The translations under genes were made by a program, and so were the position numbers. From assembly GCA_965223845.1 (NCBI GenBank), contig CBDCXR010000004.1, positions 5,344,001 to 5,408,000 of the forward strand: a stretch of 64,000 bases of DNA, written 5' to 3'. The stretch comes from Planctomycetota bacterium (GTDB lineage: Bacteria; Planctomycetota; UBA8108; SXIK01). Under the pieces are notes generated by a model that ran no database searches, had not been told where the DNA came from, and saw only the letters and a list, made by a program, of their open reading frames with translations. Position 1 is the first letter of the stretch. Every line of letters begins with the position of its first letter. Shown in pieces: positions 3,795-18,589 of the stretch.

Positions 3795-3854
3795 CGGCCT
3801 GGCGTCGCCGCGCGGTTTCTCGGTAGTATCGGCTTCCTATCAGAAGAGATGGTT

Positions 3855-3884
3855 CACCACGAAGGGCACGAAGGGCACGAAGGT
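3855..3884. repeat. Tandem 9-mer CACGAAGGG x3
   Basis: caccacgaagggcacgaagggcacgaaggt read directly. Confidence 0.85.
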
Positions 3885-3906
3885 GAAGAGAAGAGAAAGA
3901 GAAAGT

Positions 3907-3946
<40 letters not shown>

Positions 3947-3948
3947 TT

Positions 3949-8750: not shown

Positions 8751-9509
8751 ATGACTACGCTCACTTTCCTCGGAACGGGAAACGCGTTCAACGAGGACGG
8801 ATACTTCTCCACCGCAGTGTGGATCGAGACCGAACGCCGGGAGAACGTTCTGGTCGATGCGGGACCGACGACGCTCGCGGCGATGCGCCGCGCCGAAGTC
8901 GACCCCGACGCGGTCGACGCCGTCTTCATCACACATCTCCACGGCGATCACATCGCGGGCTGGCCGTTTCTCGTCTTGGATCTCGCGCTGCGCGCTCGGC
9001 GGGAACGACCGCTCGACGTCTATGGGCCGATCGGAACCCAAGCCGCTCTCGATGCGCTCGCCCACGTCTCGTACGGCGATGCGATCGCACCCCCGCGCGC
9101 CGCGTTCGAGACTCGCTTTCACGAGCTCGACGTCGAGTCCCGCGATGATGATCGCGTGTTCGACTCGCTCGCATTCGCTGTCGTTCCGGTCGAGCATCAC
9201 CCGAGCTCGCTCGGATACTTGCTTTCGACGGGAGGACATCGGATCGGAATCACCGGCGACACGGGCTGGTGCTCAGGGCTCGAGGAGCTCGCGCAGAGGA
9301 GCTCACTCCTCGTCGCCGAGTGCACCACGGTGGACGAAACGGCGGCCGCTCATCTCTCTCTCGCGGAGTTTCGCGCGCGGCGCGGAGCGCTCTCCGTCGA
9401 GCGGATCGTCCTCGTTCACACGAACGGCGCCGTCCGGTCCTCTCTCCGCGGAGAGGCGATCCCTGGGGTGGTGACGGTTACGGACGGCGAGGTGATGGTT
9501 CTCGCGTAG
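8751..9509 (+). CDS. MBL-fold metallo-hydrolase (RNase Z/BN-like)
   Basis: FLGTG, LVDAG, THLHGDH (HxHxDH), TGDT; starts 3 bp after the previous gene. Confidence 0.85.
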   Translation: MTTLTFLGTGNAFNEDGYFSTAVWIETERRENVLVDAGPTTLAAMRRAEVDPDAVDAVFITHLHGDHIAGWPFLVLDLALRARRERPLDVYGPIGTQAALDALAHVSYGDAIAPPRAAFETRFHELDVESRDDDRVFDSLAFAVVPVEHHPSSLGYLLSTGGHRIGITGDTGWCSGLEELAQRSSLLVAECTTVDETAAAHLSLAEFRARRGALSVERIVLVHTNGAVRSSLRGEAIPGVVTVTDGEVMVLA

Positions 9510-9590
9510 TGCGCGGACTCGATGGCGGGTGAGAGAGGGAGACGGGAAGAAGAAAGAAGAGAAGAGGAGTTTGTCGGGAACGGGAACGGG

Positions 9591-9630
9591 AAAAAAGAAG
9601 AGCCGACAGGCACGAGACCTGTCGGCTCTT
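9591..9630 (-). terminator. Intrinsic terminator for a minus-strand transcript
   Basis: Perfect 13-bp stem AAGAGCCGACAGG (9598-9610) / CCTGTCGGCTCTT (9618-9630), followed on the minus strand by CTTTTTT. Confidence 0.75.
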
Positions 9631-10040
9631 GGCAATCCGATCCCTTCGGGGGGAGGAGGAGGGACCAGAAGGCGGAGGAGTGAGGGCCGAGGAGCGGGGA
9701 GAGGGAGGGGAGAGAGGGGGAGGTGAAGGGAACCAGCGGCGAGCCGCTGGTTCGGGTCGGCCCTCGAGAGTTGGGAGAGAGGGGAGGGGTGGAATGTGCT
9801 GAGGAGGGGCGGGCCTCGCTGCCGCGGAGGACAGGCGCCCGGCGGAGGGAAGGGACCCGGGAGCCGACGGGTGAGGAAGGGCCGTCGGCTCCCGTGAGGG
9901 GGGTCCCCTCGAGTGAGGGAGGGAGAGAGAGCAGCGGTGCTGCGGGGCGGTCGAACGACCGAGGAGGGAGGTGATCGTCCGGCCGCAGAGGGTTTCGGGA
10001 GGTTTCGGGTCAGATTTCCTTCGCCGGGGGTCAGCCGGCT
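9591..10040 (-). ncRNA. Putative ~450 nt C/U-rich structured non-coding RNA (family not recognised)
   Basis: Lies between a sigma54-like promoter and an oriented terminator; no ATG on the minus strand; several perfect GC stems separated by pyrimidine-rich linkers with repeated CCUCC. Confidence 0.6.
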
Positions 10041-10050
10041 CGGGGGGAAA

Positions 10051-10066
10051 AGCACCGTGCGTGCCG
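10051..10066 (-). promoter_or_regulatory. Putative sigma54 (-24/-12) promoter
   Basis: Minus strand CGGCACG-CACG-GTGCT versus consensus TGGCACG-N4-TTGCW; exact GG-N10-GC spacing. Confidence 0.6.
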
Positions 10067-10092
10067 AAGCGCCCGACCCGCCCCCGAAGACA

Positions 10093-10123
10093 CCTTAAGT
10101 TATTTACATGAAATATCTTAAGG
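10093..10123. promoter_or_regulatory. AT-rich imperfect palindrome, IHF-like site
   Basis: CCTTAAG-T-TATTT-ACATG-AAATA-T-CTTAAGG; minus strand TGTAAA-TAAC-TTA resembles WATCAA-N4-TTR. Confidence 0.5.
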
Positions 10124-10187
10124 GCCTCCCGATCGTGTTCCCTATCCGCTCGAATCCGAGCTTGCGGCCCCCGTTCCCGGACCGGGC

Positions 10188-10204
10188 TGTATCAAAAGGA
10201 GACA
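10188..10204. promoter_or_regulatory. Putative upstream activator sequence for a sigma54 enhancer-binding protein
   Basis: Dyad TGTATC-AAAAG-GAGACA (TGT-N11-ACA), about 150 bp upstream of the predicted start. Confidence 0.4.
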
Positions 10205-10538
10205 CGTAAGCGATCGGTTCGGGTGAGGCGAGACGGAGGAACGTCCGGCCGCGAGCACTCTGAGGATACGGCCGGCGATCTCGCGTGCTCGGCTGTCTCC
10301 GGCACGTAGAGTGACGGCGCACGCAAGACACACCGTCGGCGGTTTTTCCGGTGGACCGCCCCCGCGAGCGATGCCGATGTACCGGGGAGACGGCGAGTTA
10401 ACTCGTCTCCTGCGGCGGTCACTCGCGGGGATTCGGAAACGGGTCCAGAGCTCACTCGTCCATCTCGACGCTACCGCAGGGTTCGAACGCCGGCCCCGCA
10501 GGCAGCGAAACGCACGACCCCGGAGCGCAGGCGGAGCG

Positions 10539-11186
10539 ATGACCGAGTTTCTTCAACTCTGCGGACAGCCGTTCAACCTCCCGTGGACGCTGCTGCTCGG
10601 TCTCGTCGTTCTCTATTGGGTGGGCGTCATCGTCGGGGCGCTCGACCTCGACGCGTTCGACTTCGATCTCGACGCGGACGTCGATGTCGATGCCGACGCC
10701 GATGTTGAAGTCGACACCGACGCGAGCGTTCACGGCGGAAGCGCACTGCTCGGCGTTCTCCGCTTCTTCGAGTTCGGCACCGTTCCGACGATGGTCATCG
10801 TCAGCTTCTTCGCGCTCGGTGGCTGGACGGCAGCGCTCCTCTTCAACTTTCACTTCGGTGGATCGACCCTCGTCGGCTTCCTCCTCTTGATCCCGATCTT
10901 CCTCGTCGCCCTCGCCGTGACGAAGGTGACGGCCGTACCGCTCGCCGCGCTGTTTCGCCAACTCGAGAACGAGGACACCGGGACGGTGACGGTCGAAGGT
11001 CAGATCTGCACGGTGAAATCTTCGAAAGTCGACGGCGAGAGCGGTCAAGCCGAGGTGAAATCGAAGGGTGCACCAGTGCTTCTCAACGTTCGCACACGAA
11101 ACGGTGAAGTTCTCCATCGCGGAGACGAGGCGGTGGTGGTTGAGCCAGACCCCGAGACGGGGACGTACTTCGTCGCTCGCCTCTAA
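10539..11186 (+). CDS. YqiJ/NfeD-like membrane protein with C-terminal OB fold
   Basis: Hydrophobic helices, Asp-rich loop, GTVPTM, C-terminal GQICTV..GQAEV..LLNVR..GDEAVVV; GGAG before ATG; adjacent to a flotillin gene. Confidence 0.8.
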   Translation: MTEFLQLCGQPFNLPWTLLLGLVVLYWVGVIVGALDLDAFDFDLDADVDVDADADVEVDTDASVHGGSALLGVLRFFEFGTVPTMVIVSFFALGGWTAALLFNFHFGGSTLVGFLLLIPIFLVALAVTKVTAVPLAALFRQLENEDTGTVTVEGQICTVKSSKVDGESGQAEVKSKGAPVLLNVRTRNGEVLHRGDEAVVVEPDPETGTYFVARL

Positions 11187-11279
11187 CTCAGTTCAAGAAA
11201 CGCTCGGTCTCACCGCCAGCGGTCTATCCACGAATCTCGAAACCAACGACAAAACGGCGCAGTAGCTCGGAGTAGAGAC

Positions 11280-13310
11280 ATGCTTTTCCTCCTTCAGACT
11301 GACCCCACGAGTTGGATCCCCCTCATCGTCGGAGCGATCTTCTGCCTCATCCTCGCCGGGATCGCCGTCCTCATCGTCAAGTGCTACCGCAAGGTGCCGC
11401 AGGGGACCGCTCTCGTGCGCACGGGGATGGGCGGGCCGAAAGTCACGACGGGCACTGGAGTCGTCGTCATCCCGGTTCTCCACCGCGCCGAGCTGATGGA
11501 CATCTCCGTCAAGCGAATCGAAATCGCGCGCGAAGGCGAAGACGGCCTCATTTGCGCCGACAATCTCCGCGCCGATATCAAGGTGGCCTTCTTCGTCCGC
11601 GTGAACAACACCGAGGAAGACATTCTTCAGGTCGCCCAATCGCTCGGTTGCGAGCGCGCCTCGCAGCAGCGGGCGCTCATCGAGCTCTTCGACGCGAAGT
11701 TTTCCGAAGCGCTCAAGACGGTCGGCAAGCAGTTCGATTTCGTCTCGCTCTACAACGAACGGGATCGTTTCAAGGAACAGATCGTCGCGCTGATCGGAAC
11801 GGATCTGAACGGCTACGTCCTTGACGACACCGCGATCGACTTCCTCGAGCAGACCTCGCTCGAGCAGCTCAACCCGAACAACATCCTCGACGCCGAGGGA
11901 ATCAAGAAGATCACCGATCTGACCGCGCAGCAGCAGATCCTCGCGAACGACATCGTGCGCGAGAAGGAGAAGGTGATCAAAAAGCAGGACGTCGAAGCGC
12001 GCGAGGCCATCCTCGAGCTCGATCGCCAACAAGCCGAAGCCGAGGCGCGTCAGCTGCGAGAAATCCAAAGCGTCCAGGCACGCGAGACATCCGAGACGAC
12101 GCGAGTCAAGGAAGAGGAGCGGCTCAAGGCCGAACGGGCCCGTCTGACCACCGACGAAGAGGTGAAGGTCGCCGAAGAGAACGTCGAGCGACAAATCATT
12201 GTCGCGAAAAAGAACAAGGAGCGTACCGAGGCGGTCGAGAACGAGCGGATCGAAAAGGATCGGATGCTCGAGCAGACCGAGCGCGAACGCATCGTCACGC
12301 TAGCGCAAATTGAAAAGGACAAGGCGGTCGAAGCGGAGAAGAAAGAGATCCAGGACGTCATCCGCGAGCGCGTCGTCGTCGAGCGGGCTGTCGTCGAAGA
12401 GGAGGAGCGGATCAAGGACACGCGAGACTTCGCCGGCGCGGAGCGACAGAAGCAAGTCGCGGTGACGAAGGCTCAGCAGACCGCAGAGGAAGCGAAGATC
12501 CGTGAGGTTCAAGCCGCGGAAGCCAGCAAGGAAGCGTCGATGCGTCTCGCCGATCAGATGTTGATCGAAGCCGAGGCGAGTCGCGGCGCGGCGGAGAAGG
12601 AGACGGAAGCCAAGAAGCTCCTCGCCGAGGCGAAGGCCGCAGAGGAAGCCGCGCTCGGACTCGCCGAAGCCGAGGTCATGGTCGCCAAGGCAGACGCGAC
12701 GCAGAAGCAGGGTGCCGTCGAGGCCGAAGTGCTCGAGCTCAAGTACTCGGCGGAAGCGGAAGGAATCGACAAGAAGGCCGCGGCGATGAAGAAATTCGAC
12801 GAAGTCGGCCGCGATCACGAGGAGTTCAAGCTCCGGCTCGAGAAGGACCGCGACATCGATCTCGAATCGATTCGGGTGCATCGCGAGGTCGCGGAGTACC
12901 GCGCGCAAATGGTCGGCGAGGCACTCAAGACAGCCAAGATCGACATCGTCGGCGGCGAATCCGAGTTCTTCGACAAGATCGTCGGTGCGATCGGAAACGG
13001 CAAGGCCGTCGATCGAACCGTCCTCGGAAGCGATGTTCTCACGGACGTGAAACAGACGTTCTTCAATGGCGACGCGGAGTACTTCAAGGCTCAGCTCGAA
13101 CGCTTCATCGGTCAATTCGGCGTCGACTCCGAGGACATCAAGAACCTCTCGATCGCCGCGCTGATCGGCAAGCTCATGAGCAAGGCGGACAGCGAGACGG
13201 CGCGCGGACGACTCCAGTCGATGCTCGGCGCGGCGCGCGAGGCCGGCCTCGCGGACACTCTCGTCTCGCACCTCGGGCTCGATCTCTCCAAGGACTCCGC
13301 GCGCTCTTGA
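11280..13310 (+). CDS. Flotillin/SPFH-domain protein (YqiK-like)
   Basis: N-terminal TM, YRKVPQGTALVRTG, GLICADNLRADIKVAFFVRV SPFH core, long E/A/K-rich coiled coil. Confidence 0.9.
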   Translation: MLFLLQTDPTSWIPLIVGAIFCLILAGIAVLIVKCYRKVPQGTALVRTGMGGPKVTTGTGVVVIPVLHRAELMDISVKRIEIAREGEDGLICADNLRADIKVAFFVRVNNTEEDILQVAQSLGCERASQQRALIELFDAKFSEALKTVGKQFDFVSLYNERDRFKEQIVALIGTDLNGYVLDDTAIDFLEQTSLEQLNPNNILDAEGIKKITDLTAQQQILANDIVREKEKVIKKQDVEAREAILELDRQQAEAEARQLREIQSVQARETSETTRVKEEERLKAERARLTTDEEVKVAEENVERQIIVAKKNKERTEAVENERIEKDRMLEQTERERIVTLAQIEKDKAVEAEKKEIQDVIRERVVVERAVVEEEERIKDTRDFAGAERQKQVAVTKAQQTAEEAKIREVQAAEASKEASMRLADQMLIEAEASRGAAEKETEAKKLLAEAKAAEEAALGLAEAEVMVAKADATQKQGAVEAEVLELKYSAEAEGIDKKAAAMKKFDEVGRDHEEFKLRLEKDRDIDLESIRVHREVAEYRAQMVGEALKTAKIDIVGGESEFFDKIVGAIGNGKAVDRTVLGSDVLTDVKQTFFNGDAEYFKAQLERFIGQFGVDSEDIKNLSIAALIGKLMSKADSETARGRLQSMLGAAREAGLADTLVSHLGLDLSKDSARS

Positions 13311-13360
13311 GAACTCGAGCTCGCTGAATCGATCTCCCGGCCCGCCCGGACATCGACGCC

Positions 13361-16300
13361 ATGAGTGATCCCGAATCCAACCGCAGCGACGTAGAATCGA
13401 CCTCGCCCGAGGAAGCGATCGACTCGAGCACGTACGAAGTTCTGAAGCGCCGCCTCCACTCGAGCGCCGACGAGCTGCAGCGCCGTCTCGATTCGCTTCA
13501 CGAGGCGCGAAAGAGTGCGTTCGGCTCGATCGACTTCGAGCTCCTTACGACCGAACGCGTCACGACGCGGCACAACTGCGTCCCGCGTGACATGGTCGTG
13601 ATCGGAAATCGACTTCTGGTCGGCTTCAACGTTCAGTTCGGCCTCAAGACGGAGACCGTCCCGGAAGATGTGTTCGCAGTCTTCGGTTTCGCCGATCGGA
13701 AGTTCACCGAGCAGGATCTCTCGCTCGTCGAGCACCCTCAGTTCGCCGCCGACTTTCGCGACCTCTATCGCTATTACAAGAAGACGTCGTTTCTACGCTT
13801 TGCGGTGATCGGTCCGTTTCTCTTCATGGTCTTTCGCGTTGGGAAGAGCCCGGAAGATGTGAAGACGTTCAAGTGGGGGATCGAGGGAGATCGACTCCGG
13901 TACGTAGACAATCGCAGCGACCACGAGTACCGCTCGCCGCCCCAGCACGAGTTCGAGTGGACGCGGACCCACCGCGACCTGCACGTCGATGGCCTCCACC
14001 CGCACATCTCCATCGAAGACCGCGTCTTCGTCGAGACCGTTGGAGGCGACCTCACGATCAAGATCGAGAACAACACGGAATCGGGGGAGGGGATCTACGC
14101 AGAACCGGTCGACGATCCCGACCAGACTCTGGATGACGCCGAGGTCTACTACGCTCGCGTCGATCAGTTGATCCTGCTCAAGATCAGGCCCTATCGCGAA
14201 TCCGAGTTCCGCTACATCGTCTACAACGAGAAGCTCCAGACGGCGGATCGCATCGATTCGATCGAGGGTTCGTGCGTCATTCTCCCCGAAGACCAGGGAA
14301 TCGTCTTCTCGAACGGCTACTACCTTCAAGCCGGCGAAAAGAAGGTCTTCGACACCGCTGCGCACGATATGCGCTTCGATCGGCGCATCGCCGCGCCGAA
14401 CGGAGAAGACTTCCTCTTCGTGTTCCACAACCACGACGCCGGGACATACACGCTCCTCCCGTACAACATCATCGACCAACGCGTCGAGAATCCCATCAAC
14501 GGACACGGCCACGCGCTGTTCGAGAATGGCGAGCTCATTCTCTTCAAAGGCCAGCCGGAACCACAGAAACATCACGCGCTCCAGATCTGGCGCACGCCGT
14601 TTCTCGGGGACGACGCCGTCGAGTTCGCCGGAGATACACCGCTCCACAAAATCGGCAACCGCGAGCTCGTTCGTGGGATGGCCGAATGCCACGCCGTGGT
14701 AGTTCTCTCACGCCGCGATGAGATCTACGCCGACCTGTACGTCGATCTCGTGAAGACCTGCGGCGATCTCGTCGACAGCTACTTTTGGCTCGGGGACCCC
14801 GATTGCTTCGATCTCCGCGAGACGATCGAGGAAATCCGAGGGACGGCGAGCGCCGCGGTCGGCGAGTTCGAGAAAGTCGTGGCGGTCCGTCGCAGTACGG
14901 ATGCACAGGTCGCCGAGGTCACCGCCGCGACACGTTCGGCCATGCGTGACGCCGGACTGCGCCGCTTCGAAGCGATCGACGACTTCGTCGCATCGCTGAG
15001 CGAGCTTCGAGGCGTGCGCGGACGCATCATTTCACTGCGGGATCTCCGGTACATCGACGGCGCCGTCGTCGATGCGCTCGAAGCCGAGGTCGAAACAGCG
15101 TCGGCCGAGATCGCGGAGCGCTGCGTCACGTTTCTCCTCGATCCGGCGGCGCTCGACCCGTACGAAGAGCGAGTCGAAAGTCTTCGCGCGGGGATCGACC
15201 CCCTCTCGACCGTAAGCGAGGCGAAAGCACTCAGCGAGCACATCGACACGCTCGCGGGCGAGCTCGAGCTTCTCATCGAAACGGTCAGCAACCTCAAGAT
15301 CGCCGACGCGACCAAGCGGACCGAGATCGTCGATCGAATCTCGTCGGTGTTCGCGACCGTGAACGGCGTGCGGGCGACCCTGCGCGGCAAGACCCAGACT
15401 CTCGCCTCCGCCGAAGGCATCGCGGAGTTCAACTCCCAGATCAAGCTCCTCGGGCAGTCGGTCGTCAACTATCTCGACCTCTGCGACTCTCCGGAGAAGT
15501 GCGACGACTACCTCACGAAGGTGATGGTGCAGCTCGAGGAGATGGAAGGGAAGTTTGCGGAGTTCGACGAGTTTGTCGTCCAGCTCGCCGAGAAGCGGGA
15601 CGAAGTCTACACCGCGTTCGAAGGTCGAAAGGTCTCGCTTCTCGAGAAACGAAACAAGCGCGCGGCCTCGCTTGCGTCTGCCGCCGATCGTATCCTCAGC
15701 GGCATCCGCGCGCGCGTCGACAAGCTCGAATCCGTCGATGAGATCAACGGCTTCTTCGCGGCAGACCTTCTCGTCGACAAGGTGCGCGATCTCCTCGTTG
15801 AGCTCGGCGATCTGGACGATTCGGTCAAGGTCGACGAGATCGAGAGTCGGCTCAAGACGATCCGCGAGGATTCCGTCCGCCAACTCAAGGACCGCCTCGA
15901 CCTCTACACCGGCGGCGGCAGCCTGATTCAGCTCGGGCGACATCAATTCTCGGTGAACACGCAGCCGCTCGATCTGACGACCGTTTCGAAAGACGGCGAG
16001 CTCTGCCTTCACCTCACCGGGACCGATTTTCTCGACCCGATCTCCGACGCGGAGCTCACGGCGACCGGCGACGTCGCGGGGCTCGAAGTCGTCTCCGAAT
16101 CGCCGGAGGTGTATCGCGGCGAGTACCTCGCGTACCAGCTTCTCACCGCCGGAGCGGCCGCGGGCAACGGCACGGCGCCCACCGAGGACTGGCTCTCTCT
16201 CGACCGCGACACCCGCCTGGAGCGAATCCAGAAATTCATGAGCACGCGCTACAGCGAGGCGTACACCAAAGGAGTCCACGATCAGGACGCGGAGCGAATT

Positions 16301-18589
16301 CTGTCCGCCGCGCTCGAGATCGACGCCGAATGCGGACTCCTCCGCTTCGCTTCGAGCGCGCGAGCGATCGCGCGGCTCTGGTGGAATCACCTCGCCCCCG
16401 ACGCACAGAAGCGGCGGCAAAGCGAGCTCGCGAGTCTCGGTCACGCGCTCGCGCTGTTTCCCGGCAGCTCGCCGACGGGATCCTACACCGACGATCTCGC
16501 CGCCGAGCTCGGGGAATTCGTTCTTGCGAGCGAGGGTCTTCTCGACGAAGCGCTCGTTCCGGAAGCCGCCGAGTACCTCTACTCCGAGCTCCTCGAGGAA
16601 GGCCCGTTCGTCGTCTCGGCCGACGCGGCACGGATCGTCGAGGCGTTCCGTGACGAAATCGCGAAGAGAAAATCGAAGACCGAGTTCAAGAACCGCCTCG
16701 CGGCAGTCGGCGACGATTGGCGGGCGCGCGTCCGCCTTCTCCGCGACTGGACGAACGCGTTTTTGGCGGCGAAAAATGACCGCGCGGCTCGACCCTACGC
16801 CGACGAAGTCGCGGCGATCTTGGAGTCTGACTCGAGTGAACCCGAAGCGATCGTCACGGCACCCGTCGATCGCGAGATCGGAGATCTCCTCGGAAACCAT
16901 CCGCGGATCAGCGAGGGCGTGTGTCGTCTCGACTACCCCGAGTTCCGCGCACGGGTTCGGCGTCACCGCGACGTCGTCGCCCCGCGCTTCGAGCGCTACG
17001 CCGCTCGAAAGCGCGAGATCGTCGACCGCGCCCGAAACGACCTAAAGCTCGAAGAGTTCAAGCCGCGAGTTCTCAGCTCGTTCGTGCGGAATCGTCTCAT
17101 CGACGAAGTCTATCTCCCCCTCGTCGGCGACAACCTCGCCAAACAGATCGGCGCCGCCGGAGCGGAAAAACGAACCGATCTCATGGGATTGCTCCTCGTC
17201 ATCTCTCCTCCCGGCTACGGGAAGACGACGCTCATGGAGTACATCGCGAGTCGGCTCGGAATCATCTTCATGAAGGTGAACGGCCCCGCGATCGGCCATC
17301 ACGTCACCTCGCTCGATCCCGCCGAAGCACCGAACGCCTCCGCGCGCGAGGAGCTCGAGAAGCTGAATCTCGCCTTCGAGATGGGCGACAACGTGCTCAT
17401 CTACCTCGACGACATTCAGCACTGCAATCCGGAGCTCCTCCAGAAGTTCATCTCCCTCTGCGACGCGCAGCGAAAGATCGAGGGAGTGTTCCGCGGACGC
17501 GCTCGGACCTACGATCTGCGCGGCCGCAAGGTCGCCGTCGTCATGGCGGGAAATCCGTACACGGAGAGCGGCGAGAAGTTTCAGATCCCCGACATGCTCG
17601 CCAACCGAGCCGACACCTACAACCTCGGCGAGATTCTCGGCGGGAACGAAGAAGCGTTCAACATGAGCTATCTCGAGAACGCGATCACTTCAAACCCGGT
17701 GCTGAATCCCCTCGCCACACGGAGCCAGAAGGATGTGTACGCGATCATCCACATGGCAGAGACCGGTTCCGATGACGGTGTCGAGCTCGAAGGGAAGTAC
17801 TCGCTCGAAGAGCTTCAAGAAATGGTCTCGACCATGAAGAAGCTCCTCCGCGTGCGCGACGTGATTCTCCGAGTGAATCGCGAGTACATCCGTTCCGCCG
17901 CTCAGGCTGACGACTACCGTACGGAGCCCGCGTTCAAGCTCCAGGGCTCCTACCGCAACATGAACCGAATCGCCGAGAAGGTGCTTTCGGTCATGAACGA
18001 CGACGAGCTCGAGGCGGTGATCTTCGAAGCCTACGAGAACGACGCGCAGACGCTGACGACCGGCGCCGAAGCGAATCTGCTCAAGTTCAAGGAGATGTTC
18101 GACAAGCTGACACCCGAGGAGACGCGGCGCTGGGAAGAGATCAAAAGAACCTTTCAGCGAAATCTTCTTCTCGGGAGCGCCGGCGACGACAAGTTCGCTC
18201 AGGTGGTCGCGCAGCTCTCGAGCTTCAATGAATCGCTCGCGTCGATCGGCGCGGCAATCGGAGACGCGGCGAAGGCTCGTGATCGATCGAGCCCGATCGC
18301 TTCACCGGCGGGCGCCGGAGCGAAACGCCGCGCCCCCCGTCCTTCGCCTCAAGAGATCCGTGTCGTCAACCGCATCCCGAAGGTATTCCTCAACGTCCTC
18401 GAGCAACAGTTCGAGTTGATGCGCGGCTGGCTCGAGCCTCTCCAAGACGAGAGCCGCCGGCAGTCCACTCAGTTCTCACACCTCCGCGAGCGCGTGGAAG
18501 AATCCCTCTCGCGGCACGCCGAGCTGATCGAGGACCTCCGGCGCTCTGACATCGAGCGCGGGGACGACGGCGACACGACGGGCGATTGA
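13361..18589 (+). CDS. Large AAA+ ATPase (DUF3686 / so-called DNA repair ATPase family)
   Basis: Walker A SPPGYGKT, Walker B LIYLDDIQH, sensor-1 MAGNP, putative Arg finger LANRAD; long helical middle region. Confidence 0.85.
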   Translation: MSDPESNRSDVESTSPEEAIDSSTYEVLKRRLHSSADELQRRLDSLHEARKSAFGSIDFELLTTERVTTRHNCVPRDMVVIGNRLLVGFNVQFGLKTETVPEDVFAVFGFADRKFTEQDLSLVEHPQFAADFRDLYRYYKKTSFLRFAVIGPFLFMVFRVGKSPEDVKTFKWGIEGDRLRYVDNRSDHEYRSPPQHEFEWTRTHRDLHVDGLHPHISIEDRVFVETVGGDLTIKIENNTESGEGIYAEPVDDPDQTLDDAEVYYARVDQLILLKIRPYRESEFRYIVYNEKLQTADRIDSIEGSCVILPEDQGIVFSNGYYLQAGEKKVFDTAAHDMRFDRRIAAPNGEDFLFVFHNHDAGTYTLLPYNIIDQRVENPINGHGHALFENGELILFKGQPEPQKHHALQIWRTPFLGDDAVEFAGDTPLHKIGNRELVRGMAECHAVVVLSRRDEIYADLYVDLVKTCGDLVDSYFWLGDPDCFDLRETIEEIRGTASAAVGEFEKVVAVRRSTDAQVAEVTAATRSAMRDAGLRRFEAIDDFVASLSELRGVRGRIISLRDLRYIDGAVVDALEAEVETASAEIAERCVTFLLDPAALDPYEERVESLRAGIDPLSTVSEAKALSEHIDTLAGELELLIETVSNLKIADATKRTEIVDRISSVFATVNGVRATLRGKTQTLASAEGIAEFNSQIKLLGQSVVNYLDLCDSPEKCDDYLTKVMVQLEEMEGKFAEFDEFVVQLAEKRDEVYTAFEGRKVSLLEKRNKRAASLASAADRILSGIRARVDKLESVDEINGFFAADLLVDKVRDLLVELGDLDDSVKVDEIESRLKTIREDSVRQLKDRLDLYTGGGSLIQLGRHQFSVNTQPLDLTTVSKDGELCLHLTGTDFLDPISDAELTATGDVAGLEVVSESPEVYRGEYLAYQLLTAGAAAGNGTAPTEDWLSLDRDTRLERIQKFMSTRYSEAYTKGVHDQDAERILSAALEIDAECGLLRFASSARAIARLWWNHLAPDAQKRRQSELASLGHALALFPGSSPTGSYTDDLAAELGEFVLASEGLLDEALVPEAAEYLYSELLEEGPFVVSADAARIVEAFRDEIAKRKSKTEFKNRLAAVGDDWRARVRLLRDWTNAFLAAKNDRAARPYADEVAAILESDSSEPEAIVTAPVDREIGDLLGNHPRISEGVCRLDYPEFRARVRRHRDVVAPRFERYAARKREIVDRARNDLKLEEFKPRVLSSFVRNRLIDEVYLPLVGDNLAKQIGAAGAEKRTDLMGLLLVISPPGYGKTTLMEYIASRLGIIFMKVNGPAIGHHVTSLDPAEAPNASAREELEKLNLAFEMGDNVLIYLDDIQHCNPELLQKFISLCDAQRKIEGVFRGRARTYDLRGRKVAVVMAGNPYTESGEKFQIPDMLANRADTYNLGEILGGNEEAFNMSYLENAITSNPVLNPLATRSQKDVYAIIHMAETGSDDGVELEGKYSLEELQEMVSTMKKLLRVRDVILRVNREYIRSAAQADDYRTEPAFKLQGSYRNMNRIAEKVLSVMNDDELEAVIFEAYENDAQTLTTGAEANLLKFKEMFDKLTPEETRRWEEIKRTFQRNLLLGSAGDDKFAQVVAQLSSFNESLASIGAAIGDAAKARDRSSPIASPAGAGAKRRAPRPSPQEIRVVNRIPKVFLNVLEQQFELMRGWLEPLQDESRRQSTQFSHLRERVEESLSRHAELIEDLRRSDIERGDDGDTTGD

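Follow-up and report, generated by a model that had tools for sequence, protein, structure and literature searches.

Positions 9591-10040 of a 64,000-nucleotide stretch of DNA from a Planctomycetota bacterium (contig CBDCXR010000004.1, positions 5,344,001 to 5,408,000 of the forward strand; hereafter the window) form the core of a ~1-kb spacer between two plus-strand genes, in a genome of 7.9 Mb with a chromosome of 7.87 Mb. A first-pass annotation, made from the letters of the sequence, had proposed that this region encodes a sigma54-dependent noncoding RNA (ncRNA) of ~450 nt on the minus strand. In our analysis, there is an even chance that 9591-10040 is a self-contained, species-specific gene for such an RNA. 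What stands of the proposal is that the region forms, in silico, a discrete non-coding unit running from promoter to terminator, the sponge-like function also proposed for it being hypothetical; what speaks against it is that no conservation was found. Its features, in window coordinates, are the following.

9591-10040, minus strand: predicted ncRNA of ~450 nt, C/U-rich, no ATG, no coding periodicity, 14 CCUCC
10051-10066, minus strand: sigma54-type -24/-12 element CGGCACG-N4-GTGCT, with GG at 10065/10064 and GC at 10053/10052; predicted start at ~10040
10093-10123, no strand assigned: AT-rich palindrome CCTTAAG-N17-CTTAAGG, at -53 to -83, centred at ~-68, 27 nt upstream of the -24 GG
10188-10204, no strand assigned: imperfect palindrome TGTATC-N5-GAGACA, at ~-148 to -164 from the predicted start, 5/6 positions complementary
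9947-9986, minus strand: hairpin with loop CCUCCCUCCUCG within GAUCACCUCCCUCCU; resembles the 3' end of 16S rRNA
9852-9907, minus strand: 13-bp perfect hairpin 9858-9870/9882-9894 with loop CCCUUCCUCAC, extendable by 9852-9857/9902-9907
9682-9765, minus strand: 9-bp closing stem 9682-9690/9757-9765, enclosing a 10-bp hairpin at 9730-9753 and a ~40-nt unpaired pyrimidine tract
9591-9630, minus strand: intrinsic terminator, stem 9598-9610/9618-9630 (13-14 bp), then C-UUUUUU at 9597-9591

Signals bounding the candidate RNA

The terminator, the sigma54 site and the AT-rich island all lie on the minus strand and in the right order. At the downstream end, the hairpin at 9591-9630 has 14 pairs, 8 of them G-C, a loop of 5 and the tail CTTTTTTCCC, with the T-tract on the minus side only; on the transcribed strand it thus shows both marks of an intrinsic terminator, a GC-rich stem-loop and a U-tract behind it. 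When strict criteria were applied (a perfect stem of at least 9 and at least 6 T of 8), 57 terminators were found in the chromosome, 47 of them intergenic; 37 of the latter stand behind a co-oriented gene end and 10, including the one at 9591-9630, are orphans. Strict terminators located within 300 nt of a gene end are co-oriented with the gene in 37 of 42 cases. The nearest minus-strand gene end upstream of the 9591-9630 terminator is ~14 kb off and, given this norm of co-orientation, a terminator that opposes its flanking genes suggests an unannotated transcript.

At the upstream end, the minus strand reads CGGCACGcacgGTGCT at 10066-10051. This element agrees with 10 of the 12 positions of TGGCACG-N4-TTGCW, which we take to be the sigma54 consensus, and it is the sole site with at least 10 matches in 9000-11000 on either strand; by the same presumed consensus, GG at -24 and GC at -12 stand at the canonical spacing of a sigma54 unit. 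Its position coincides with the 5' boundary of the pyrimidine-rich block, and neither strand of 9300-10700 yielded a sigma70-like promoter. Sites of 10/12 grade are rare: the chromosome has 226, of which 63 are intergenic (28%, versus 17% intergenic DNA). By a rough estimate from such densities, the chance of a sigma54 site falling so near a preset position, at a distance of a few tens of bases, is about 1e-3, with the reservation that the signal was chosen post hoc. The first-pass claim that promoter and terminator both point to the minus strand is thus borne out, at 10066-10051 by the sigma54-type element and at the other end by the one-sided T-tract. The host also encodes the corresponding machinery, with two rpoN genes (two Sigma54_DBD matches) and 36 Sigma54_activat matches, 30 of which have E <= 1.7e-30, indicating ~30 enhancer-binding proteins.

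The palindrome CCTTAAG-N17-CTTAAGG at 10093-10123 is single in the genome. It is also one of seven islands in the chromosome with 4 G+C per 25 nt, a value below which no 25-mer falls; two of these seven precede a sigma54-like site by 25-29 nt, and none follows one. To judge from its sequence, this island is a candidate DNA-bending or regulator site, and sigma54 promoters often have a bending site at this position. Occurrences of CCTTAAG near other sigma54 sites were compared as well and were not convincing. Further upstream, the imperfect palindrome at 10188-10204 is a weak candidate for an enhancer-binding-protein site.

Contigs from two sequencing runs (two samples of one study) span 9300-10600 with no differences, which excludes the gross assembly artefact against which the first-pass annotation had warned; the agreement is not independent proof, because these runs are possibly the source of the assembly itself.

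Composition, fold and likeness to known regulatory RNAs

On the plus strand, GC skew reaches +0.36 to +0.46 and AT skew +0.26 to +0.45 in 9500-9999, and the minus strand of 9591-10040 is made up of 217 C, 86 T, 96 G and 51 A (48% C, 19% U, 21% G and 11% A), with no ATG, one GTG and one TTG. The strong strand asymmetry and the lack of ATG that had been pointed out at first pass are thus real. Stretches with at least 70% purine or pyrimidine per 400-nt window number nine in the 7.87-Mb chromosome, and 9591-10040 is among them. Codon-position GC periodicity is absent in any frame throughout the ~1 kb of 9510-10538, and small open reading frames in 10040-10538 were rejected for lack of it. Counting also confirmed the ~14 copies of CCUCC reported earlier: the 14 copies are the genome maximum per 450 nt (mean 0.69; runners-up 10, 9 and 8). 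They include the motif CCUCCUCCC, which occurs in exact form once, on the minus strand at 9659-9651, where it falls within a linker or a weak stem.

Folded to minimum free energy, the minus strand reaches -182.4 kcal/mol and is more stable than its shuffles (mean -144.2, standard deviation 5.6; z = -6.83), none of 100 being as good; the plus strand gives z = -3.81. Five perfect GC-rich hairpins, whose stems at 9598-9610/9618-9630, 9682-9690/9757-9765, 9730-9753, 9858-9870/9882-9894 and 9947-9986 had all been proposed at first pass, are present in the minus-strand fold. The common core ascribed to two of them was also recovered, since hairpins of the form GAGCCGAC...GTCGGCTC occur three times in the chromosome and twice in 9591-10040. 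A REP-like (repetitive extragenic palindromic) hairpin family was tried and rejected. Mean unpaired probability is 0.79 at CCUCC motifs versus 0.49 over the whole RNA; this would be expected anyway, as any pyrimidine tract in a G-poor RNA is mostly unpaired.

From these features we infer transcription, sigma54 dependence and function as follows. Transcription would start at ~10040 from the sigma54-type promoter at 10066-10051, which has the AT-rich, probably DNA-bending palindrome at ~-68 and possibly an activator site at ~-155, and would end at the 9630-9591 terminator. In the predicted RNA, five perfect GC-rich hairpins follow one another, and the long unpaired C/U tracts between them resemble the anti-Shine-Dalgarno sequence. 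The exposed pyrimidine tracts could pair with purine-rich RNA, either Shine-Dalgarno (SD) regions or GA-rich leaders. By analogy with other systems, base pairing with purine-rich RNA is the most likely mode of action, a protein decoy or a cis-antisense RNA being less probable. Such pairing would resemble that of the C-rich or CCUCC-containing loops of other bacterial small RNAs (sRNAs), the candidate being multivalent and of unusual length.

SD pairing is in use in the organism. GGAGG peaks at -12 to -9, an SD-like word is found at -20 to -5 in 1555 of 4355 crude gene starts versus 615 in an upstream control, and the 3' end of the genome's own 16S rRNA is canonical (GGATCACCTCCTTTCT). The exact complementarity of the candidate RNA to translation-initiation regions is slightly above that of all five composition-matched shuffles, with a count of 373 at 9 nt or more compared with 221-310. 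Neither Hfq (PF17209) nor CsrA (PF02599) gave a match in the genome, which is 91.7% complete; no search was made for Crc.

Four known groups of RNAs invite comparison. CrcZ, of ~400 nt, and CrcY, the sigma54/CbrB-dependent Hfq/Crc decoys of Pseudomonas, share with the candidate the size class, a promoter activated by enhancer-binding proteins, a repeated short unpaired motif, and an intergenic gene of their own with a terminator. They belong to another phylum, however, and the CrcZ motifs are A-rich, whereas the candidate RNA has 11% A and no AAnAAnAA. The CrcZ model of Rfam gave no match at E <= 10 in 9000-10800. The analogy with CrcZ drawn at first pass thus holds for promoter type and size, but not for the motifs or for Hfq, which was not found. 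In PMC5113210, CrcZ is described as carrying several AAnAAnAA motifs, in a decoy model for Hfq/Crc.

The cuckoo RNAs of Alphaproteobacteria (ar14/RSs0680/SmelC397) resemble the candidate in having adjacent hairpins and anti-SD-like CCUCC, the candidate having one exact CCUCCUCCC and one loop CCUCCCUCCUC. Cuckoo RNAs are several times shorter than 450 nt and come from another phylum; most pyrimidine tracts of the candidate are linkers or internal loops, and its remaining loops differ. No Rfam family came near its threshold in 9000-10800, in line with the novelty claimed at first pass; the best, ar14, reached 16.5 bits (E = 2.8), its gathering score being 58.8, so that of the proposed cuckoo analogy little more than the single exact CCUCCUCCC remains. 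The cuckoo family is characterized, in PMC4615179, by two to four adjacent hairpins, each with CCUCCUCCC in its loop.

Unpaired C-rich stretches are also shared with sRNAs of Gram-positives, namely RoxS/RsaE and the actinobacterial 6C/B11, 6C likewise residing in a high-GC host. These RNAs are ~100-120 nt long, have two to four C-rich regions and are widely conserved, whereas the candidate is a 450-nt orphan with a sigma54-type promoter. Their unpaired C-rich stretches are thought to pair with G-rich ribosome-binding sites (PMC8216469, PMC12395582). Finally, the CsrB/RsmZ decoys are multivalent RNAs of a few hundred nucleotides, and the plus strand of the region has 28 GGA; these GGA motifs, however, lie on the strand opposite to promoter and terminator, and a CsrB-like reading of the plus strand was rejected because no CsrA was found.

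A conserved short sigma54 RNA family and the search for homologs

The same genome holds a perfect sigma54 site at C4:540646 that is followed not by a gene but by a C-rich, RNA-like unit of ~120 nt containing UUCCUCCUCC. It belongs to a conserved sRNA family of ~90-125 nt, with seven copies in at least five genera of this planctomycete order, located as follows.

L100:247-396 (G000:C4:540646-540795), plus strand: sRNA copy of the own genome
L104, from 1529, plus strand: sRNA homolog
L112, L110, L113 and L114, from 1522 downward, minus strand: sRNA homologs
L106, from 1525 downward, minus strand: sRNA homolog

Identity is 74% over 148 nt in G003, the 5' part is kept in G001 and G007, and G005 has three copies. 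All seven copies have a -24/-12 element (TGGCAC, TGGCAT or TGGTAC, N5, then TTGC, or GTGC in G007), an invariant GAGACCCAAAACCC ~12 nt after it, and a TGTCAG-N5-7-CTGACA palindrome ~80-110 nt upstream with an AT-rich spacer in between. The body is C-rich and contains CCUCC words; a GC-rich hairpin capped by a GNRA-like loop forms its end. The family has no Rfam match, and among 301 genomes sampled from the phylum, the own genome counted, three showed its pattern, all inside the order. A MAFFT alignment misplaces the hairpins, and RNAalifold gave no usable covariation count. In the own genome, the 3' tail (L100:~373-383, C4:540772) contains CGCCCTTCGTG, the exact complement of the core CACGAAGGGCG of a dispersed repeat described below; the 11-mer is found 20 times on one strand and 19 times on the other, for the most part within copies of the repeat, and G003 keeps GCCCTTCGTG. 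This complementarity could reflect a target relationship or a shared origin. Two further sigma54 sites, L101 (G000:C4:2184709, plus strand; 12/12) and L102 (G000:C4:6089974, minus strand; 11/12), are followed by ~130-330 nt that carry no coding signal and no Rfam match and then by a convergent gene, and may represent additional sigma54-driven ncRNAs; the L101 site adjoins the gene of a 1744-residue enhancer-binding protein.

Judged by sequence, the conserved family serves as a positive control from within the lineage: it consists of predicted C-rich small RNAs under sigma54 control, and it shows the layout proposed for the promoter of the 450-nt candidate to be real here. Family and candidate share the genome, the AT-rich spacer with -24/-12 layout, a body rich in C with CCUCC words, and a terminal hairpin rich in GC; an upstream palindrome is present in both, though weak in the candidate, and the GTGC variant of the candidate's -12 box recurs in the G007 promoter. 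They differ in that the family is short and conserved, whereas the candidate is ~450 nt long and an orphan. The GAGACCCAAAACCC box is absent from the candidate, the 25-mer with up to 6 substitutions matching C4:540674 only; so is the TGTCAG...CTGACA site upstream of it, where only TGTATC-N5-GAGACA at 10188-10204 bears a loose likeness to it and has no counterpart elsewhere. A link through GACCCGAAACC was also considered; this sequence lies 46 nt further downstream and occurs 13 times in the chromosome, and it is only suggestive.

The surroundings of the candidate, needed for the comparison among relatives, are set by the two flanking genes.

8751-9509, plus strand: metallo-beta-lactamase (MBL)-fold hydrolase gene, preceded by ilvD and 2-hydroxyacid dehydrogenase genes
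10539 (start), plus strand: gene of a 215-residue membrane protein of no family, the first of the downstream operon

The operon (10539-18589, plus strand) encodes this 215-residue protein, a 676-residue protein with a weak match to flotillin FloT (E = 7e-4) and a 1742-residue protein with DUF3686, DUF7902 and an AAA ATPase domain. PADLOC gave no match, and PADLOC, NCBIfam and Pfam together yielded just DUF3686/AAA and the weak flotillin match; the 215-residue protein had no match in 20 genomes of the order, and the operon is lineage-specific.

A number of results weigh against a ~450-nt RNA gene in this spacer. The sigma54 score is mid-grade: by the ratio of coding to intergenic sites, intergenic ones of 10/12 grade are genuine perhaps half the time; sites of 11-12 grade number 23, of which 15 are intergenic. 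In dinucleotide-preserving shuffles of the region, CCUCC occurs 9.0 times on average (standard deviation 2.7) and 116 of 2000 shuffles reach 14, so the anomaly lies in composition, and the first-pass idea of a repeated, selected motif finds no support. The stems carry no strand information, because all are perfectly Watson-Crick paired. The complementarity count of 373 for initiation regions is barely above the 306 of in-gene controls, and exact-complement k-mer counts single out no outstanding target. The candidate is not a member of the CrcZ, cuckoo, CsrB or conserved local sRNA families, and the genome is rich in GA-rich repeat DNA.

The comparison with relatives adds to these points. Among 40 relatives, the RNA body (9560-10080) was matched in one, over a low-complexity stretch of 63 nt, and the promoter region (9985-10540) in none. 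MBL-fold protein loci were compared in 80 metagenomic and 25 genomic cases, with no useful homolog in either set; the 80 metagenomic loci (best identity 49%) contain no 400-nt window with more than 66% purine or pyrimidine. In the three genomes of the same family (G001-G003), the gene that follows the MBL-fold gene differs: in G001 and G002 it has a relative at 7.03 Mb of the own genome, and in G003 the neighbour is a convergent gene of 1233 residues. The lack of homologs indicates a species- or genus-specific element. Moreover, the same search detected the short sRNA across genera, which makes its failure with the 450-nt element informative and points to an element that is young or fast-evolving.

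In G003 we also noted a hairpin (GGGGAGTCGACAG..CTGTCGACTCCC) at L099:4330-4400, downstream of the MBL-fold ortholog. Its loop contains CCUCC, it has a weak T-tract, and it lies on the other strand than the ortholog. The likeness of this hairpin (GGAGTCGACAG...) to the core of the candidate terminator (GAGCCGACAG) is insufficient for homology, and may be coincidence or a relic of shared ancestry.

Competing readings of the locus and their meaning

Low-complexity purine/pyrimidine DNA arises easily in this genome, so non-functional DNA is a serious rival. According to this explanation, which we doubt but would not dismiss lightly, the region is lineage-specific low-complexity sequence, a by-product of the processes that generate GA-rich repeats, and its signals are fortuitous or left over. 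Two dispersed repeat families are relevant. Family A consists of a GA-rich tract followed by the 22-nt GTTTGTCGGGAACGGGAACGGG, with 20 copies at up to 3 mismatches (for example L002-L010), many of which have an inverted CCCGTTCCCGTTCCCG ~100-130 nt upstream; one copy, which has no left arm, lies at 9530-9592 and abuts the terminator from outside. Family B resembles miniature inverted-repeat transposable elements (MITE-like): its unit, (T)TCACACGAAGGGCGCGAAGG...GAAGACGAAGG, is followed by a GA-rich, microsatellite-like tail, and it occupies ~121 loci on C4, of which 93 are intergenic; copies often face each other in pairs at a distance of 150-300 nt. An example in the window is found at 3795-3948, with the core motif at 3858-3874. 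Of the 16 strongest intergenic purine tracts, 15 belong to family B, and the candidate region is the sixteenth. The abundance of both families, the adjoining family-A copy, the absence of conservation and the fact that composition accounts for the CCUCC count all favour this rival, and perfect stems that lack compensated changes would suit young DNA.

Against it, the candidate region is single-copy and bears neither repeat signature. The terminal motif of family A, CGGGAACGGGAACGGG, ends at 9592, outside the predicted RNA, and the CACGAAGG repeats of family B are absent from 9593-10040; the region is G/C-rich, G-rich on its purine strand, and full of hairpins rather than GA-microsatellite-like. 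In addition, terminator, sigma54 site and AT-rich island coincide with order, spacing and strand all correct, for which the chance, estimated roughly from background densities, is well below 1%, these signals again having been chosen post hoc. Outside the window, at G000:C4:2129190-2129320, we also observed ~10 tandem copies of a 13-mer (GGAGAGTGTGAAT on the gene strand) whose unit takes in both the start codon of a cupin-like gene and its ribosome-binding site; the gene start itself is thereby repeated.

A second possibility accepts a minus-strand sigma54 RNA but has it act as a protein decoy for Rho, ribosomal protein S1 or a cold-shock protein, which we consider quite unlikely. The C-over-G excess, taken per 78 nt, peaks at 58 percentage points, higher than anywhere else in the 64-kb window, and 162 of 449 dinucleotides of the minus-strand RNA are YC (pyrimidine followed by C); Rho is encoded in the genome, and initiation regions show no clear excess of complementarity that would favour pairing instead. 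CrcZ and CsrB offer analogies as multivalent decoys (PMC5113210). On the other side, no binding motif is defined, neither Hfq nor CsrA was matched in the 91.7% complete genome, and an untranslated C-rich RNA would itself be a substrate of Rho and could end early. We know of no RNA decoy of Rho or S1.

The plus strand might instead be the functional one, as a 3' untranslated region of the MBL-fold gene or as a spacer or leader of the 10539 operon that acts through hairpins, G-quadruplexes or SD-like sequences; in a variant, the minus-strand RNA would be a cis-antisense regulator of the read-through transcript. We hold this to be very unlikely. It would fit the plus-strand orientation of both flanking genes, the fact that no promoter was found for the downstream operon, and the position of strong intergenic purine tracts on the coding strand in 9 of 10 tandem contexts, but the remaining purine tracts are repeat tails, to which extent the orientation statistic may not transfer. 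The plus strand also contains two canonical G-quadruplex motifs, at 9696-9720 and 9847-9871 (280 in the chromosome), and 14 GGAGG besides its 28 GGA. The plus-strand reading would leave unexplained a T-tract on the minus side only; moreover, no CsrA was found to read the GGA motifs, and ~500 nt of ordinary sequence separate the tract from the next start codon.

That the minus strand encodes a small proline/serine-rich protein is scarcely credible: an open frame of 250 codons with a GTG start does exist at 10055-9303, but its codon-position GC is 0.72/0.65/0.67 versus 0.71/0.48/0.78 in the neighbouring gene, it has no Pfam match, no ATG and no purine-rich ribosome-binding site, and it runs antisense through the MBL-fold gene.

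The sigma54-dependent minus-strand ncRNA is thus well framed but orphan, and the conserved short sRNA is the sturdier result. A bolder version of the former, which we regard as unlikely, would make the 450-nt RNA a multivalent 'anti-purine' hub, controlled by sigma54 and an enhancer-binding protein, that soaks up SD regions or GA-rich leaders or acts as a decoy for a protein that binds C-rich RNA, such as Rho or S1. The leaders could include those seeded by MITE-like repeats, in a planctomycete in which neither Hfq nor CsrA was detected. If true, such a hub would, together with the conserved short sRNA, constitute a sigma54-wired, C-rich riboregulatory layer new to Planctomycetota; a full-text literature search returned nothing on planctomycete sRNAs or on such a layer.

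Riboregulation in Planctomycetota is almost unexplored. For immediate use the conserved short sRNA is the better subject, since it has homologs in which covariation and targets can be tested. If the 450-nt RNA is real, it would be of a kind already known, a regulatory RNA under sigma54 control that exposes C-rich tracts for pairing, and it would provide a handle on what some of the ~30 enhancer-binding proteins control. As a long, multivalent, sigma54-controlled regulator in an organism in which Hfq and CsrA were not found, it would also indicate that RNAs with many repeated motifs arise independently of those chaperones.

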